From Fibrobacteria bacterium (GTDB taxonomy: Bacteria; Fibrobacterota; Fibrobacteria; UBA11236), in contig JAJNBB010000002.1 of the NCBI GenBank assembly GCA_021155885.1, positions 2,929-66,928 on the forward strand: a stretch of 64,000 nucleotides of DNA, read 5' to 3'. The notes under the pieces are model-generated. The model was not told the DNA's origin, made no database searches, and saw nothing but the letters and a program-made list of their open reading frames with translations. Of this stretch, positions 27,167 through 61,038 are shown piece after piece (the stretch's first letter is position 1; the number at the start of each line of letters is the position of its first letter). The position numbers and the translations under genes are program-made.

Positions 27167-28969
27167 CTAAGGCTCGATCCAGCGGCCGTGGGACTTGATC
27201 AGGTTGACCAGCGCCTCGGGAGCCTCGTCCTCGGGGATGTTCTTCTGCACGCATTCACGGCCCACGTACAGGCTCACCTTGTTCGGGGCGCCTCCCACGT
27301 AACCGAAATCCGCGTCCGCCATCTCGCCCGGGCCGTTCACGATGCAGCCCATCACGGCGATGGAAATGTTCTTGAGGTGGGCCGTCTTGCTCCGGATGCG
27401 TTGCGTGGTGCTTTGCAGGTCGAACAGCGTGCGCCCGCAGCCGGGGCAGGCCACGTATTCCGGCTTCGAGCGGCGCACCGCGGCGGCCTGCAGGATGTCG
27501 TAGGCAAGGTTCAGGCCCGCCTTCACGCCCGCCGCGCTTTCGACGTGGATCAGGTCGCCGATGCCGTCGGCCAGCACCGCGCCGAGGCGCGCCGCCGCGC
27601 CCATGTTGCCCGTGGGGCTGCCGTCGGTGTGGTCGCGCAGCACGATCAAATCCTGGCGCTCCTGCCGGTCGAGCCATGCGGCGAGGTGGCGGTAGGCCCC
27701 CGCCAGGTTCGGCAGGAAGGGGTCGCAGGACCACAGCACGTCGCCTTCGGGAATCTCCACGAGATCCAGTTCGGCCAGGTCGCTGATGCAGATCTCCACG
27801 GGCTTTCCGGCCGGCAGCTTCTCCTCGTGGAGCGCGCCCGCGAACACGGGCCAGGTCTCGCCGTTGATCCACTCCGCCTTGCGGTCGCCCTTCGGCAGCG
27901 CTTCGGACCCGGGATTATGCACGCCCACGGCCACGGGCTCGCGGCCCCCGGCGACCAACGCCCCCAGGTTCACCGGACGGGTGTCGCGGCGCTGGTAGCT
28001 GTAAAAGGAAACGCTCTCGGGAAGCTCCGGCACCGCGGGGTAATGCGCCGTGTCGCAAAGCTTCATCAAGGTCTTCGCCACCGGCACCTCGTGCACCGGG
28101 TCCTCGGTGAGCGACACGCGGATGGTGTCCCCGAGGCCGTCGAGCAACAACGCGCCGATGCCCACCGAGGACTTCAGGCGTCCGTCCTCCCCGTCGCCCG
28201 CCTCGGTCACGCCGACGTGGAACGGGTAGGGCTTATGCGCCCCCGCCGCGAGGCGGTGCGCCAGCAGGCGGTAGGCCTGGATGGCCACGCGCGGGTTGCT
28301 GCTTTTCATGCTGAACACGATCTGGTCGAAATCCTCGGCCTCGCACACGCGCAGGTATTCGAGCGCCGATTCCACCATGCCCTCGATGGTGTCGCCGAAC
28401 TTCCACATGATGCGGTCCGACAGCGAGCCGTGGTTCGTGCCGATGCGCAGGGCCACGCCCCGCGCCTTCGCCTCGCGCACCAGCGGCGCGAAGGCGTCGT
28501 ATACCTTCTGCGTCCCGGTCTCGAACGAGGCGTCATCGTATTCCTTCATCTCCCCCGCGGCCTTCGAGTCCACGAAGTTGCCCGGGTTGATGCGCACCTT
28601 CTCCACCCACTTCACCGCTTCGTACGCGGCGCGGGGCTGAAAGTGGATGTCCGCCGAGATCGGGGCGTCGCATCCCGCCGCCCGCACCTTGGCGACGATG
28701 TCGCGGAGGCACTCCGCGTCCTTTTGCGTCGGGGCCGTGATGCGGATCAATTCGCAGCCGGCTTTCCACAATTCCAGCGTCTGGAACGCGGTGGCGTCGA
28801 TGTCCTTGGTGTTCGTCGTCGTCATCGACTGAACCAAAATCGGGTGTCCCCCGCCGATGACGCGGTTGCCCACGCGCACCGGAATCGTCTCCCGGCGTTC
28901 GGGGGCGAACCGGCTCGTTATATAGGGCGGATTATCGGGGAGGATCGCCCCGGCGGTTTTCTGGCTCAT
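27167..28969 (-). CDS. ispG: 4-hydroxy-3-methylbut-2-enyl diphosphate synthase, long form with inserted A* domain.
   Basis: About 600 aa. N-terminal TIM-barrel motifs (VQSMT, RIGTNHGSL) and a C-terminal 4Fe-4S domain (ACPGCGRT...MGCIVNGPGE) are separated by a roughly 250-aa insertion, as in the plant/Bacteroidota-type GcpE. Start at MSQKTAGAIL. Confidence 0.9.
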   Translation of the reverse strand: MSQKTAGAILPDNPPYITSRFAPERRETIPVRVGNRVIGGGHPILVQSMTTTNTKDIDATAFQTLELWKAGCELIRITAPTQKDAECLRDIVAKVRAAGCDAPISADIHFQPRAAYEAVKWVEKVRINPGNFVDSKAAGEMKEYDDASFETGTQKVYDAFAPLVREAKARGVALRIGTNHGSLSDRIMWKFGDTIEGMVESALEYLRVCEAEDFDQIVFSMKSSNPRVAIQAYRLLAHRLAAGAHKPYPFHVGVTEAGDGEDGRLKSSVGIGALLLDGLGDTIRVSLTEDPVHEVPVAKTLMKLCDTAHYPAVPELPESVSFYSYQRRDTRPVNLGALVAGGREPVAVGVHNPGSEALPKGDRKAEWINGETWPVFAGALHEEKLPAGKPVEICISDLAELDLVEIPEGDVLWSCDPFLPNLAGAYRHLAAWLDRQERQDLIVLRDHTDGSPTGNMGAAARLGAVLADGIGDLIHVESAAGVKAGLNLAYDILQAAAVRRSKPEYVACPGCGRTLFDLQSTTQRIRSKTAHLKNISIAVMGCIVNGPGEMADADFGYVGGAPNKVSLYVGRECVQKNIPEDEAPEALVNLIKSHGRWIEP

Positions 28970-29065
28970 TGTGATTGAAAAATAGGAAATGAAGCGTTGG
29001 GGGTTGCGAGAATGGCCCCAAAAACCGCCCAGGATTCGCGAAAACACAAAAAAACAACGGTGGCG

Positions 29066-30229
29066 CTAGAGCGGCAGGCGCGGGACGCGCACCTCGGTTT
29101 CGGTTCCCCGGTCCGTTGATTTGATTTTAAAGCGCCCATTCACGGAGGCCGCCCGTTCACGCATGCCTAGGAGTCCAAGACCGGCTCGCCGCTTCCCCTT
29201 GGGCAGAGACCCGGAATCGGAGTCAAAGCCTTTTCCATCGTCGTGAATGACCAGCCGAACGCCATCCACGTGCGTCGACAGCCTTATGCTTACGTGACGC
29301 GCCTTGGCATGCTTCTCCACGTTTCTCAGGGTTTCCTGCAGGATCCGGTAGAGCGCCAGTTCGGTATCGGCGGACAGGCGCGCCGCGAGCTTTACGAACG
29401 CCTCTTTGACGGGAATTCCCGTCCGCTTGCAGAACTCCGCGCTGATGTCCTGAAGGCCCGCCGCCAGGCCCAAGGTATCCAAAACGCTGGGCCGGAGATT
29501 GCGGGAGATGCTCTCCACTTCGTCGACCGTAGCGCCGATCATGGCAGAGAGCTTCAGGGCCGCGGCCTTCGACTTTACATCGCGGGCCGTAAGGCCCTTG
29601 GCAAGCACCTTGCTGTAGATGAGGATACCGCAAAGCATTTGCGTGATCGTGTCGTGCAGTTCATGGGAAAGGCGCACGCGCTCCTCTTCCTGCACCTGCA
29701 ATACCCGATGCGTGAGCGCCCTTAACCGCTCCTCGGACTTGTGGGCGCCCGTCATGTCGGTCACCACCATGCTGAGCGTGGCATCCCCGGAGCCGGTCCG
29801 GGAATCGTGATTCGCGATCGGGCGGATCGAAATATTCACGGGTATCTCCGACCCGCCTCCGACCCGAAGTTTCGCCTGCATCTTGAAGCCCGCCCTGCGG
29901 GGCCGCTTGAGAAGGGACCCGAGCACCGCCCGATCCTCAACGGAAAGAAAACGATGGAAAGGTCCGCCCGTAACCTGCTCGAGAGGATCTTTCACCATCC
30001 GGGCAAAGCACTCGTTGGCGTAGAGAATGGTCTTGTTCGCCGTGAGCGTCAGCGCGCCTTCATTCATGGATTCGATAAGCATCCGGTAGGCGTGCCCTTC
30101 TCCCTCCAGGGTGAAAACCTTGGAACCGTCCTTGCCGGCGACCACCACCGTATCCACCTCGCCCATGCGGATGGCGCGCAGCGCTTCTTCCGCTTCCGCC
30201 AACCGGACGCGGAGCCCGGGTGTTTTCAA
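29066..30229 (-). CDS. PAS-sensor histidine kinase of the HisKA_3 (NarL/DegS partner) type; last gene of the kai operon.
   Basis: N-terminal coiled coil, PAS fold (ALTLTANKTILYANECFARMV), HisKA_3 H-box (RLSHELHDTITQML), and HATPase_c (HDDGKGF, GLGLLGMRERA). The start overlaps the kaiB2 stop (ATGA). Confidence 0.85.
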   Translation of the reverse strand: MKTPGLRVRLAEAEEALRAIRMGEVDTVVVAGKDGSKVFTLEGEGHAYRMLIESMNEGALTLTANKTILYANECFARMVKDPLEQVTGGPFHRFLSVEDRAVLGSLLKRPRRAGFKMQAKLRVGGGSEIPVNISIRPIANHDSRTGSGDATLSMVVTDMTGAHKSEERLRALTHRVLQVQEEERVRLSHELHDTITQMLCGILIYSKVLAKGLTARDVKSKAAALKLSAMIGATVDEVESISRNLRPSVLDTLGLAAGLQDISAEFCKRTGIPVKEAFVKLAARLSADTELALYRILQETLRNVEKHAKARHVSIRLSTHVDGVRLVIHDDGKGFDSDSGSLPKGKRRAGLGLLGMRERAASVNGRFKIKSTDRGTETEVRVPRLPL

Positions 30230-30579
30230 GCGGCCGCCTTAGGGGGCGGGATCAGGTCAAGCTCGGCGAACAGTCCGGAAATATTCAGCAGGTTGCCGAT
30301 GAACCGGCGCGCCGGCTTGGGCCGTTCCTTGACAAGGGTCGGCGTGGCAATGATCTGGTTCGCGCGCGCCAACTCGGGCTGCTGATAGATATCGACCACT
30401 TCCAGAACAAAATTGTCCGGAATCTCCGCCTCGCACAAGTGGCGGATCCTGAGCACCGCCTCGCGCGACCGGGTCGTGGCCCCGGCCACGAACAGGCGCA
30501 TGACATACTTTTTGCGAGGCCCCGCGCTCCCGGATTGCGGAGAAGTCCTTGCGACGGGAGGCGTGCGTTTGCGCTTCAT
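30226..30579 (-). CDS. kaiB: KaiB-family protein, copy 2, with a basic N-terminal extension.
   Basis: YVMRLFVAGATTRSREAVLRIRHLCE...FVLEVVDIYQQPELARANQIIATPTLVK matches the KaiB thioredoxin-like core. About 25 extra K/R-rich residues at the N-terminus. Confidence 0.85.
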   Translation of the reverse strand: MKRKRTPPVARTSPQSGSAGPRKKYVMRLFVAGATTRSREAVLRIRHLCEAEIPDNFVLEVVDIYQQPELARANQIIATPTLVKERPKPARRFIGNLLNISGLFAELDLIPPPKAAA

Positions 30580-30583
30580 GGGT

Positions 30584-30895
30584 TCACTCCGGTTTGCCCG
30601 CGAGGCGAAGATCCAGCCCGACCAGGGCCCTTTCCGTATCGGAAAGATTGCCGATGAGCACGCGCACGGGCTTCGGCAATAACCTTACCACCGTGGGAAT
30701 GGCGAGGATCTGGTCGCCTTTGGCCAGCTTGGGATGCTTCCTCAAATCGATCACCCGGATGTGGTAGCGCCCCTTTAGATGGGTTTCGCAAAATTCCTTA
30801 AGATTCGCGAGCGCGATTCCCGATCGGGGCGACTGATCGTTCACATACAGGCGCAATTGCCATTTTTCGACTTGGGCGGTTTTGGCAGGAGTCAT
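30584..30895 (-). CDS. kaiB: KaiB-family protein, copy 1 (canonical length).
   Basis: WQLRLYVNDQSPRSGIALANLKEFCE...YHIRVIDLRKHPKLAKGDQILAIPTVVR. 103 aa. The start overlaps the kaiC stop (ATGA). Confidence 0.88.
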   Translation of the reverse strand: MTPAKTAQVEKWQLRLYVNDQSPRSGIALANLKEFCETHLKGRYHIRVIDLRKHPKLAKGDQILAIPTVVRLLPKPVRVLIGNLSDTERALVGLDLRLAGKPE

Positions 30896-32673
30896 TTTAC
30901 CCTCGGCCTTCCAGGCCTTGCGCGCGCGGCGCGCGGCCCCGCGACCACCTTGGCGTCGGCCTGCCGCAGAATTCCCGAGGCCGCGCGTTCCGTGGTCAGC
31001 AAGCGCGTTTGCGTTCCAACCTGTTCGGCGATGCGCCGCAGCTCCAGGGCCTCCGTCTCATAGTCCTCCCGCAGCCCGCCGATTTGCCGCTCCAGGGCCG
31101 CCCGCTTACGCTCCACGGCGCGCTGAAGCTGCGCCGCTTCCTGCTGGCTCGCCAGGCCGGCGGCCCTCTCCAGGTCTTCCTGGGCCACGCGCGCGGAGCC
31201 CGTCAGCACGCCGCTGGGGCCTATATAAGCGTCCACCAGGTCGATACCCTGGTCCGAAATCAGGAACTCGCGGATCTGGTTCGAATGCGCCATGCCCCGC
31301 GCCTTCAGCACGTAAAGCACGCGGTTGCGTTCGCCGTTGCCTTCGTAGTCCTGAAGCAGGAGCCAAGAGTCCATCAACGAGGACATCGCCGCCTCGCTTT
31401 GTTGCAGGGCATGCCCGCCCTGGGTCAAACTGGTGAAGAGCGAGGTGACTTGCCCGGCCTTGAGGTAGTCAATCAGCCGGGTCACCATGCCTTTGCTTTC
31501 GGAGCCGGTTCCGGCATCCATCAAGCTCGTAATGGGGTCGATCACGACGACATGCGGCTTAAAGGCCGCGATCTCCTTGAACATGGTGGCCAGGTGCATT
31601 TCCAGGCCGTACAGGGACGGTCGCGCCGAATGGAAGCGCAACAGGCCCTTGGCGAGCAGGGGTTCCAGGCGCAGGCCGATGGATTGCATGTTGCGGACGA
31701 TCTGGTTCGGCGATTCCTCGAACGAGAAAAAGAGAACGCGCTCCCCGCGCAGGGCGGCGGCCTGGGCGAAATTGGCGGCCACGATGGTCTTGCCGGTGCC
31801 GGGCGTTCCGGTGAGCAAAATACTGCTGCCGCGAAAGAACCCGCGGCCGCCGAGCATGGCATCGAGCCGGGGAATGCCCGTGGCGATGCGCTCGTTGGAA
31901 ATCCTATGGTTCAATCCCAGCGAGGTGATGGGCAGCACGCTGATGCCGGTCTCGCCGATGAGAAACGGGAATTCGTTGGTGCCGTGCAGCGCCCCCCGGT
32001 ATTTCACCACGCGCAAGTGCCGGGTGGCGATCTGATCGCAGACGCGATGATCGAGAAGGATGACGCAATCGGACACGTACTCTTCCAGCCCGTGACGCGT
32101 CAATTGCTCGCGCCCGCGTTCTCCGGAACCGCGCTCCGCCGTGATCACGGCGGTCACGCCCTTGTCCTTCAGCCAGCGGAACAGCCGCCGCAGTTCGGCG
32201 CGCAGGATGGCCTCGTTGGGAATGCAGGCGAACAGGGCCTCCAGCGTATCCAGGACCACGCGCTTCGCGCCAATGGAATCGATGGCGTAGCCCAGCCTTA
32301 CGAACAGCCCCTCGAGATCGTAATCGCCGCTCTCCTGCAGTTCGCTGCGTTCCAGGTGGACGTAGTCGATGAGGATTTTTTTGCGGCGAACAAGGCCGTC
32401 CAGGTCAAAACCCAGTGACGACACGTTGGCCTTGAGCTCGCCTTCGGTTTCTTCGAAGGACATCAGTACGCCCGGCTCACCGAACATGGCCGCGCCGCGC
32501 ACCAGGAATTCGGCCGCCAAAAGCGTCTTTCCGCAGCCGGCGCTGCCGCATACCAAGGTGGGCCGCCCGCGCGGGAGGCCTCCGCCCGTGATTTCGTCGA
32601 GCCCTTGTATGCCCGTGGGGCACTTGGGCAATTGCCTCACCGGCGGAGCGCGTTTAACGACGCTTTTTTTCAT
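30892..32673 (-). CDS. kaiC: KaiC double-RecA ATPase/autokinase with a roughly 110-aa C-terminal coiled-coil extension.
   Basis: Two Walker A motifs (GSAGCGKT in CI, GTPGTGKT in CII) and conserved catalytic Glu pairs. The CII segment AAMSSLMDSW aligns with the S. elongatus HISTITDT phospho-site loop, giving Ser-Ser at the S431/T432 equivalents. The C-terminus is an Ala/Glu/Arg/Gln-rich heptad region. Confidence 0.92.
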   Translation of the reverse strand: MKKSVVKRAPPVRQLPKCPTGIQGLDEITGGGLPRGRPTLVCGSAGCGKTLLAAEFLVRGAAMFGEPGVLMSFEETEGELKANVSSLGFDLDGLVRRKKILIDYVHLERSELQESGDYDLEGLFVRLGYAIDSIGAKRVVLDTLEALFACIPNEAILRAELRRLFRWLKDKGVTAVITAERGSGERGREQLTRHGLEEYVSDCVILLDHRVCDQIATRHLRVVKYRGALHGTNEFPFLIGETGISVLPITSLGLNHRISNERIATGIPRLDAMLGGRGFFRGSSILLTGTPGTGKTIVAANFAQAAALRGERVLFFSFEESPNQIVRNMQSIGLRLEPLLAKGLLRFHSARPSLYGLEMHLATMFKEIAAFKPHVVVIDPITSLMDAGTGSESKGMVTRLIDYLKAGQVTSLFTSLTQGGHALQQSEAAMSSLMDSWLLLQDYEGNGERNRVLYVLKARGMAHSNQIREFLISDQGIDLVDAYIGPSGVLTGSARVAQEDLERAAGLASQQEAAQLQRAVERKRAALERQIGGLREDYETEALELRRIAEQVGTQTRLLTTERAASGILRQADAKVVAGPRAARARPGRPRVK

Positions 32674-32825: not shown

Positions 32826-33752
32826 CTATGCGGCCAACAATTGCTTTTTGAACTCCCGCGGCGAGACGCCCTGGATACGCTTGAACGCCTTGGAGAACAC
32901 GAACGGGTCGCCGTAGCCCACGCGCTCCGCGATCGCGTCGAGATTGTCGTCGGTGGCGCGGAGTAAGTCCATCGCGCGCTGGATGCGGAGGCGGGCCAGG
33001 TAATGCCCCGGCGTGTCCGACGCAAGCTTCTTGAAGCGCTGCGCGAACGCCGCGCGCGAAAGCCCCGCCCGTTCGGCCAGCTCCTCCAGGTTCCAGTCCC
33101 GCTCCGGGTGGGCGTGCATCGCCTCGATCGCCCGGTGCAGGTGCGGGTCCCGCAGCGCGCGGCTCCAGCGGCCTTCGCCGGCCCCTTCGCGGTTCACCCC
33201 TTCCCTCTCCAGCCAGTTCCGCAGGATGTAATGGAACATCACGTCAAGCAGGGCCTTCACCACCGCCTCCGAGCCTTCCCCGCCCTGAGCCAGCTCCGCG
33301 GACAACAGTTGCTGCGCGACGTTCAAAGGGCTGTGCGCGGGGATTTCGTTGGACCGGATCACGATCATCTCCGGGAGCTCGGCGAACAAGGGATGGATGG
33401 GCTCCGTCTGGAATTGATAGAGGCCGCAGGTGACCACCGCGAGCGGTGGGACGTCAGTATCCTCGGGCACCGGGAAGGGACCGGCGCGTAGCGCGGTCGG
33501 GGCCTCGGTGACCCTATCCGTGGATACTACGTGGTCGAAGCCGCGGCGGATCAGCACGACATCGCCGCGCTCCAGGCGCAGCGGCGCGTCGAAGCGCGGC
33601 GCGCGGATGTAGGCCTCGCCGTACGTGACGATGTGGAAGCCCATGCTTTGGTTGCACGGCAGTTTCATCGCCCAGGGAGAATGGAAGGCGTGACTGACCA
33701 ATAGGGATTTGCGCAGGCCCGCGGAATTCAGGATGTCGGTCAGCACGTCCAT
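32826..33752 (-). CDS. AraC-family transcriptional regulator (cupin-like N-domain plus HTH_AraC).
   Basis: C-terminal RAGLSRAAFAQRFKKLASDTPGHYLARLRIQRAMDLL...IAERVGYGDPFVFSKAFKRIQGVSPREF is a classic AraC HTH pair. Confidence 0.88.
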   Translation of the reverse strand: MDVLTDILNSAGLRKSLLVSHAFHSPWAMKLPCNQSMGFHIVTYGEAYIRAPRFDAPLRLERGDVVLIRRGFDHVVSTDRVTEAPTALRAGPFPVPEDTDVPPLAVVTCGLYQFQTEPIHPLFAELPEMIVIRSNEIPAHSPLNVAQQLLSAELAQGGEGSEAVVKALLDVMFHYILRNWLEREGVNREGAGEGRWSRALRDPHLHRAIEAMHAHPERDWNLEELAERAGLSRAAFAQRFKKLASDTPGHYLARLRIQRAMDLLRATDDNLDAIAERVGYGDPFVFSKAFKRIQGVSPREFKKQLLAA

Positions 33753-60964: not shown

Positions 60965-61038
60965 GCAGGTGTGGCCAAACTGGATAAGGCATCTGACTAC
61001 GAATCAGAAGACTCCAGGTTCGAATCCTGGCACTTGCA
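60965..61038 (+). tRNA. tRNA-Arg (anticodon ACG).
   Basis: Cloverleaf with acceptor GCAGGTG/CACTTGC (one G-U pair), T-arm CCAGG-TTCGAAT-CCTGG, anticodon stem TCTGA/TCAGA with loop CTACGAA, and discriminator A. CCA is not encoded. Confidence 0.85.

Follow-up and report, generated by a model that had tools for sequence, protein, structure and literature searches.

The kaiC gene and its product

The window analyzed here, a 64,000-nucleotide stretch of contig JAJNBB010000002.1 (positions 2,929 to 66,928, forward strand) from Fibrobacteria bacterium assembly GCA_021155885.1, carries on its minus strand a kaiC gene (30892..32673) that codes for 593 residues and a stop codon. The product has two KaiC domains and is of the kaiC2/KaiCRS type, KaiCRS being the KaiC of Rhodobacter (Cereibacter) sphaeroides KD131. 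Two kaiB genes and a gene for a sensor histidine kinase follow on the same strand. An earlier reading, made from the sequence only, had singled out a C-terminal coiled-coil extension and two adjacent serines in this protein, and had predicted a KaiA-independent, possibly dodecameric, timer. Based on the evidence given below, we consider it very probable that this kaiC belongs to a KaiBC system without KaiA, of the kaiC2, or R. sphaeroides, type.

Profile searches revealed two stretches in the protein that matched Pfam family PF06745 (E 6e-107), corresponding to KaiC/RecA-like domains. The score against the NCBIfam KaiC equivalog model NF006799 was 712 bits, which passes the cut-off of 408; against TIGR02655, the model for cyanobacterial KaiC, it was 338 bits, under the cut-off of 546. 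The CI domain (31924..32631, minus strand) spans residues 15-250 (Pfam stretch 18-249) and contains catalytic glutamates E74/E75 and a Walker A motif, GSAGCGKT, which was read from the KaiC sequence as starting at residue 43. The CII domain (31201..31923, minus strand) spans residues 251-491, with a GTPGTGKT Walker A motif starting at residue 289, catalytic E319/E320, and an aspartate, D386, that is considered below. Both glutamate pairs were invariant in an alignment of 75 KaiC sequences. We conclude that the Walker A motifs and the catalytic glutamates are intact in both domains.

Gene calls on three independent assemblies, of which two were Logan SRA assemblies and one was a JGI metagenome, gave the identical 593-residue protein, and the exact protein is already in NCBI under the name "MAG: KaiC 1 [Fibrobacteria bacterium]", where MAG stands for metagenome-assembled genome. 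Homologues at 84-88% identity make up more than 100 protein clusters, with lengths of 582-600 residues. A 954-residue NCBI protein (P0004), which is 61% identical to the window KaiC across 93% of the latter, has many additional Pfam matches and may result from a fusion involving KaiC or from an erroneous gene call.

The window protein has a five-residue insertion, ERGSG (residues 180-184; 32122..32136, minus strand), in a CI loop, opposite a gap in the alignment of its relatives. The insertion was missing in 29 of 29 aligned relatives and in KaiCRS, as judged from a HMMER alignment with Protein Data Bank (PDB) entry 8DBA, and at the DNA level it resembles an imperfect tandem duplication of 15 bp. 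The loop matches the region of KaiCRS residue D171, which was tied to CI-interface packing and the rate of ATP hydrolysis (2026 preprint).

The C-terminal extension

The extension had been put at about 110 residues. Its existence was borne out, while its size was not. For comparison, residues 278-519 of KaiC from Synechococcus elongatus PCC 7942 were used, of which positions 279-519 are identical to PDB entry 1u9i. The BLASTP alignment of the two proteins ends at residue 493 in both. Beyond a shared LTGxxR/ISGSPT position, 104 residues are left in the window protein and 30 in the S. elongatus protein, so that the net extension is ca. 74 residues, not 110; with respect to native KaiCRS, the window tail is only ca. 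10 residues longer. The contrast that the sequence-only reading had drawn with the short tail of cyanobacterial KaiC thus held. The interval that it had assigned to the extension, 30892-31225, does correspond to residues 484-593 plus the stop codon on the minus strand, though the codon-exact interval is 30892-31224, one base shorter. The peptides it had quoted were found at their places (AYIG at residues 482-485, LERAAGL at 501, and MSSLMD at 430), and the last 110 residues are indeed rich in alanine, glutamate, arginine, and glutamine (A20 R17 L11 E11 G10 Q9).

Long open reading frames can arise spuriously in DNA of high GC content, and a tail so rich in A/R/E/Q could be an artefact, that is, a frameshift or read-through fusion, or else a functionless, low-complexity, disordered segment. 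We consider this extremely improbable. The tail was highly conserved up to residue 576, it aligned without gaps with a crystallized homologue, and its predicted helix was modeled with a predicted local distance difference test (pLDDT) score of ca. 70-84 across residues 491-550. A frameshift or fusion origin is ruled out, because the identical reading frame was recovered from three assemblies, because tail length is conserved (101-105 residues past the LTGxxR motif in 119 of the 120 homologues listed), and because the ATGA overlap places the start of the downstream kaiB gene on the kaiC stop codon; the alignment with 8DBA leads to the same conclusion. The extension is therefore not a separate downstream reading frame.

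In an alignment of 30 sequences, the tail was strongly conserved to about residue 576 and variable, yet basic, beyond that point. The presence of heptads was assessed in residues 518-559, where 9 of 12 a/d positions were occupied by L, I, V, M, F, Y, or W, an occupancy matched by only 8 of 5000 composition-preserving shuffles of the tail. A Kyte-Doolittle power spectrum of residues 493-560 had its maximum at 3.65 residues; in the 3.4-3.65 band, an equally strong signal was seen in 119 of 2000 shuffles. The hydrophobicity periodicity is thus weak and not significant when taken alone; the a/d occupancy test is the informative one. A cross-phylum alignment of 25 KaiC sequences, with the record labels Verrucomicrobiota/Opitutaceae, Lentisphaerae, Acidobacteriota, Planctomycetota, Limnocylindria, Gallionella, and Alphaproteobacteria, was free of gaps in the tail. 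Ten columns (513, 520, 527, 531, 534, 538, 545, 548, 559, and 566) form a hydrophobic core, being hydrophobic in 52-100% of the 25 proteins, and these columns share the a/d register of the heptad test.

An AlphaFold2 run with 30 sequences of ca. 85% identity gave a mean pLDDT of 55.6 and was unusable. The model used here is that of a monomer, obtained with the 75-sequence alignment, which spans two clades; its mean pLDDT was 76.4. In this model, residues 492-573 (30955..31200, minus strand) form a single uninterrupted helix of 82 residues, which, together with the heptads and the alignment, suggests a coiled-coil arm. Block means of pLDDT were 69-84 for residues 481-550 (76 in 541-550), 61 in 551-560, and 52 in 561-570, and fell past the helix to 39 (571-580), 35 (581-590), and 36 (591-593). 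At a rise of 1.5 Å per residue, the predicted helix would be ca. 120 Å long; the length of the KaiCRS coiled coil is ca. 115 Å (PMC10076222). A Foldseek search of the PDB with the model returned dodecameric KaiCRS chains (8fwj, 8fwi, and 8dba) as top matches, with 531-561 aligned columns, which means that the tail was part of the alignment. The proposed coiled-coil extension with heptads is thus supported by the predicted helix, the a/d occupancy, and the conserved core columns, and the tail is not the disordered, heptad-free segment that would have spoken against it.

Past the helix, the protein ends with a basic segment, VAGPRAARARPGRPRVK (residues 577-593; 30895..30945, minus strand), which is predicted to be disordered. 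Its 17 residues include six K/R and no D/E (net charge +6), in agreement with the basic tail noticed earlier. The end is Arg/Pro/Gly-rich, and its sequence varies within the clade while always remaining basic. The median net charge of this end is +5 in the clade of the window protein versus +1 among the matches of a search with KaiCRS (P0271-P0390), and in the 25-sequence alignment the alphaproteobacterial homologues, with the exception of Cereibacter proteins and P0294, end no more than two residues from the point where the basic end starts. When the last 110 residues alone were searched against a representative library of 1.84 billion proteins, 224 matches with E<=0.001 were obtained; the 150 listed were 49-475 residues long and are presumed to be fragments of proteins that have the tail. 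Nothing was gained on its distribution.

Predicted phosphorylation sites and allosteric residues

In the BLASTP alignment with S. elongatus KaiC, MSSLMD of the window protein pairs with ISTITD. The serines Ser431-Ser432 (31378..31383, minus strand) accordingly occupy the positions of S. elongatus S431/T432, just as had been proposed from the sequence, and they also align with KaiCRS S413/S414. They are predicted autophosphorylation sites, and both were invariant in the 75 aligned sequences from two clades. Direct reading of the sequence shows a further serine, Ser426, five residues upstream of S431, resembling T426 of S. elongatus KaiC.

The position of S. elongatus R385 is occupied by D386 in the window KaiC and by E369 in KaiCRS. 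R385 is an inhibitory residue reported to damp the catalytic glutamate, and its KaiCRS counterpart is Glu369 (bioRxiv 10.64898/2026.04.01.715469). The allosteric path that connects the coil with the active site of KaiCRS consists of S413, S414, W419, Y436, L438, V449, and R450 (PMC10076222). The corresponding residues of the window protein, S431, S432, W437, Y454, L456, I467, and R468, are identical or conservatively replaced, and five of them (S431, S432, W437, Y454, and R468) were invariant among the 75 sequences. The residue referred to as "Val421" by Pitsawong et al. is a leucine in the native KaiCRS sequence used here (P0271), and its window counterpart is Leu439.

Comparison with characterized KaiC proteins

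The best solved relative of the window KaiC is the dodecameric KaiCRS of PDB entry 8DBA (E 4e-190). Residues 15-557 aligned with residues 5-541 of the chain, and there was no gap in the coil. Identity to native KaiCRS (P0271, 566 residues) was 52% overall, 65% in CI, 53% in CII, and 27% in the tail. The likeness to the extended KaiC of purple bacteria that had been suspected from the sequence thus extends into the coil. Together with KaiCRS (8DBA, 8FWI, 8FWJ, and 8DB3), the window protein has two domains, a Ser-Ser pair, a gap-free arm with a heptad core, the allosteric residues, and an acidic residue in place of S. elongatus Arg385. Judging from these alignments, the tail and the coiled-coil arm of KaiCRS are homologous residue by residue. 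The two proteins differ at the very end, where the basic tail of the window KaiC, of ca. 17 residues, is some 10-20 residues longer and KaiCRS has an unrelated, non-basic end of 12 residues, and in the five-residue CI insertion of the window protein.

Pitsawong et al. (Nature 2023; PMC10076222) described "a large clade", mostly kaiC2, with a C-terminal tail ca. 50 residues longer and two serine sites. In KaiCRS, the tail forms a 12-helix coiled coil that links two hexamers into a dodecamer; the dodecamer exposes the A-loop, which results in KaiA-independent autophosphorylation, and KaiCRS together with KaiB makes an hourglass driven by the ATP:ADP ratio (PMC10076222). A reconstructed ancestral KaiC with a tail of equal length is a dumbbell-shaped dodecamer by small-angle X-ray scattering (2026 preprint). 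For the window KaiC, we infer a tail-to-tail dodecamer and independence of KaiA by homology to KaiCRS. A helical tail need not join hexamers: it could form a bundle within one hexamer, or be an arm on which KaiB or the kinase docks, leaving the protein hexameric. The low identity of the tail to KaiCRS (27%), the inability of a monomer model to show pairing, and the extra basic end, which could alter packing, would be compatible with such an arrangement. We nevertheless consider it quite unlikely, given that the hydrophobic a/d core matches KaiCRS column by column, and the KaiCRS tail lies in the 12-helix bundle between hexamers; the ancestral protein with its equally long tail is a dodecamer; and the predicted length of the helix is close to that of KaiCRS.

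Two serines and the loss of the arginine in the Walker B region are shared with the kaiC2 subgroup (Synechocystis KaiC2 and the KaiC proteins of Rhodopseudomonas palustris and Legionella), and by these sequence features the window KaiC is a member of it. KaiA-independent kinase activity was reported for kaiC2 members, and they co-occur with a KaiB2-type KaiB (Schmelling et al. 2017, PMC5520375). The KaiC of Opitutaceae bacterium TAV5 (WP_009507516.1) has the same N-terminal signature, LPKCPTGI.GLDEITGGGLPRGRPTL, as the window protein, most of whose nearest relatives belong to this same family, Opitutaceae. Pitsawong et al. had already included the TAV5 protein, as an uncharacterized sequence only, in their supplementary alignment and their tree (PMC10076222). 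S. elongatus KaiC resembles the window protein in its fold, domain order, CII sequence (36% identity), and phosphorylation site positions. It differs in having Ser-Thr instead of Ser-Ser, in its need for KaiA, in Arg385, in being a hexamer, and in having only 30 residues past the A-loop position.

The architecture, structure, and mechanism of such proteins were published in 2023, and the window KaiC belongs to the published kaiC2/KaiCRS clade (PMC10076222). The novelty implied by the sequence-only reading is therefore not there: the clade was in the 2023 alignment and the exact protein was already annotated as KaiC. The locus has little discovery value and is of modest interest as a data point.

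Operon partners

The first kaiB gene (kaiB copy 1; 30584..30895, minus strand) codes for 103 residues (Pfam KaiB, E 2e-23; PDB 8fwj_M, KaiB-RS, E 2e-23) and the second (kaiB copy 2; 30226..30579, minus strand) for 117 (Pfam KaiB, E 7e-22; PDB 4kso_C, E 1e-17). Copy 1 is most like R. sphaeroides KaiB, copy 2 is most like cyanobacterial KaiB, and the two are 36% identical to each other. Copy 2 has a basic N-terminal extension and would be 91 residues long if Met27 were the start. Public gene calls disagree on this point (91 versus 117 residues; 30501-30579, minus strand). We favor the longer form, because many related loci have residues that align with the 26 basic N-terminal ones. The sensor histidine kinase gene (29066..30229, minus strand) encodes a 387-residue protein with PAS (E 9e-8), HisKA_3 (E 1e-9), and HATPase_c (E 1.5e-12) domains, as defined by Pfam; here, too, public calls disagree on the start (378 versus 387 residues; 30203-30229, minus strand). 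The kaiC and kaiB copy 1 genes overlap at ATGA, the two kaiB genes are separated by a 4-nt gap, and kaiB copy 2 overlaps the kinase gene at TTGA, with TTG as the start codon. We conclude that the kaiC-kaiB-kaiB-histidine kinase operon is tightly packed, and that its genes are probably translationally coupled. The operon fits the kaiBC pattern described for non-cyanobacteria (PMC3164672). The kinase is probably an output or input partner of the Kai system.

The arrangement was compared in 68 related loci with enough downstream sequence. A kinase gene followed kaiB in all 68 of these informative loci, and the order kaiC-kaiB1-kaiB2-kinase was found in 55. Among the rest, ten had only the second KaiB type, two had two copies of the first type, and one, a Planctomycetota MAG (L078), had four kaiB genes in a row. 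At the position of S. elongatus G88, KaiB proteins of the first type had Gly in 65 of 70 cases, and at the position of D90 they had Asp in 61 of 70. In the second type, the G88 position was occupied by E, G, D, or Q, and an LSD(T/R)E motif was lost. KaiB residues G88 and D90 were proposed to regulate fold switching (Schmelling et al., PMC5520375).

The R. sphaeroides locus also has kaiC followed by kaiB and a histidine kinase gene, with no kaiA nearby. It differs from the window in having one kaiB gene instead of two, in its kinase, which is of HWE type whereas that of the window is of PAS-HisKA_3 type, and in its setting: the KD131 genes are on a plasmid of a purple bacterium, and the window is part of a chromosomal-looking contig of an uncultured non-proteobacterium. 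A single kaiB is also found in Sinorhizobium sp. B11. On RefSeq plasmid p3 of Pararhizobium qamdonense, kaiC-kaiB-kaiB is followed by a response regulator gene. With this tandem and those of the related loci, tandem kaiB is a recurrent and already annotated variant. Among the papers covered, searches on tandem kaiB genes or on Kai proteins in Verrucomicrobia returned nothing relevant. The tandem of the window lies at 30226-30895 (minus strand), and the comparison took in related loci L001-L080 and positions 5153-5826 of L087.

The two divergent KaiB proteins might differ in the phase or in the kinetics of their binding to dodecameric KaiC. One of them might, for example, be a brake that works through slow fold switching, and the other a competitor, or an adaptor to the kinase, that is always competent to bind. 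The clade-specific basic tail of KaiC could add a contact with the opposite hexamer, with nucleic acid, or with a membrane. We regard this proposal as speculative and unlikely to be correct; were it true, a lineage that is not phototrophic would have a system without KaiA in which a delay is built in.

Proposed function

By analogy with KaiCRS, helices of one KaiC hexamer would pair with those of an opposed hexamer, forming a tail-to-tail dodecamer. The dodecamer would keep the A-loop region extended, so that at high ATP levels CII could autophosphorylate Ser432 and Ser431 with no need for KaiA, and phosphorylation would move the register of the coiled coil. KaiB would then bind the CI ring in its post-hydrolysis state, speed up ATP hydrolysis, and favor dephosphorylation as the ATP:ADP ratio drops. 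The outcome would be an hourglass that is reset by the environment rather than a free-running clock. As suggested by gene context, the PAS-HisKA_3 kinase probably connects the system with gene expression by way of an unlinked NarL/LuxR-type regulator.

Several considerations weigh against a KaiCRS-like hourglass. With only 27% identity between the tails, the register shift and partner swap may differ in detail from those of KaiCRS. The AlphaFold2 model, being that of a monomer, speaks for a helix and has no bearing on pairing into a coiled coil. Oligomeric state, kinase activity, and KaiB binding are predicted by analogy, and the absence of kaiA refers to the immediate neighborhood of the operon. 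With a HisKA_3 kinase instead of an HWE kinase and with two KaiB proteins, regulation may also differ. Finally, the host is probably neither a purple bacterium nor a phototroph, and a day/night ATP:ADP cue is then less obvious than in purple bacteria.

To our knowledge, neither Fibrobacteria, as the host is labeled, nor Verrucomicrobiota, as the nearest KaiC relatives are labeled, are known as phototrophs. This would suit another function for a protein of the same family and architecture, namely a stress or metabolic-state switch in which KaiC phosphorylation reports energy or redox status to the kinase and there is no 24-h function; a PAS sensor kinase in the operon would likewise suit sensing. 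Such a role was proposed earlier for KaiC homologues of Legionella and Pseudomonas. KaiC of Legionella pneumophila, a KaiC2 homologue, is involved in the stress response (Schmelling et al., PMC5520375), and KaiC homologues of Pseudomonas and Methylobacterium were implicated in the literature in stress resistance rather than in rhythms. On the other hand, KaiCRS, the closest characterized relative, is an ATP:ADP-driven hourglass (PMC10076222), and KaiC2 of R. palustris confers a fitness benefit in 24-h cycles (Schmelling et al., PMC5520375). We consider a stress switch devoid of timing to be possible, though doubtful. The timer and the stress functions are not mutually exclusive, given that an hourglass of this kind also senses metabolic state.

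Uncultured and probably heterotrophic bacteria, mostly labeled Verrucomicrobiota, abound in highly conserved systems of the KaiCRS type with a coiled-coil tail, usually with two kaiB genes and a HisKA_3 kinase. Their abundance prompts the question of what purpose an ATP:ADP-driven hourglass serves outside phototrophs.

Host and genomic surroundings

The KaiC relatives at 82-87% identity are mostly from MAGs labeled Verrucomicrobiota or Opitutaceae. The window record is labeled Fibrobacteria, and the named relatives of IspG (53-83% identity), which is encoded downstream of the kinase gene (27167-29047), all carry the label Fibrobacteria or Fibrobacteres. This conflict of labels points to a transfer of the kai operon between phyla or, alternatively, to unreliable MAG labels. 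A KaiC that is 86% identical to that of the window (P0008) is encoded on a 220,274-bp contig, and an IspG with 79% identity (P0406) is likewise recorded on a contig of 220,274 bp; the two probably share one contig. The tetranucleotide signature of the operon was at the 18th percentile and was not an outlier. GC content at third codon positions was slightly lower in the operon than in neighboring genes (0.69-0.81 versus 0.84-0.91).

No KaiA-like gene flanks the operon: its immediate neighborhood consists of the gene for an AraC-type regulator (Cupin_6 and AraC HTH domains; 32826-33752, minus strand), 152 bp upstream of kaiC, and the downstream ispG gene. According to the literature, kaiA is confined to cyanobacteria (Schmelling et al., PMC5520375). 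Neither neighbor is conserved beside the operon in relatives, and many of these have a second HisKA_3-type kinase gene in place of the regulator. A σ70 promoter scan around the operon revealed no promoter-like sites, and terminator-like sites were no more common there than expected by chance. An Rfam scan of the whole 64-kb window revealed one tRNA only, at 60965-61038 on the plus strand.

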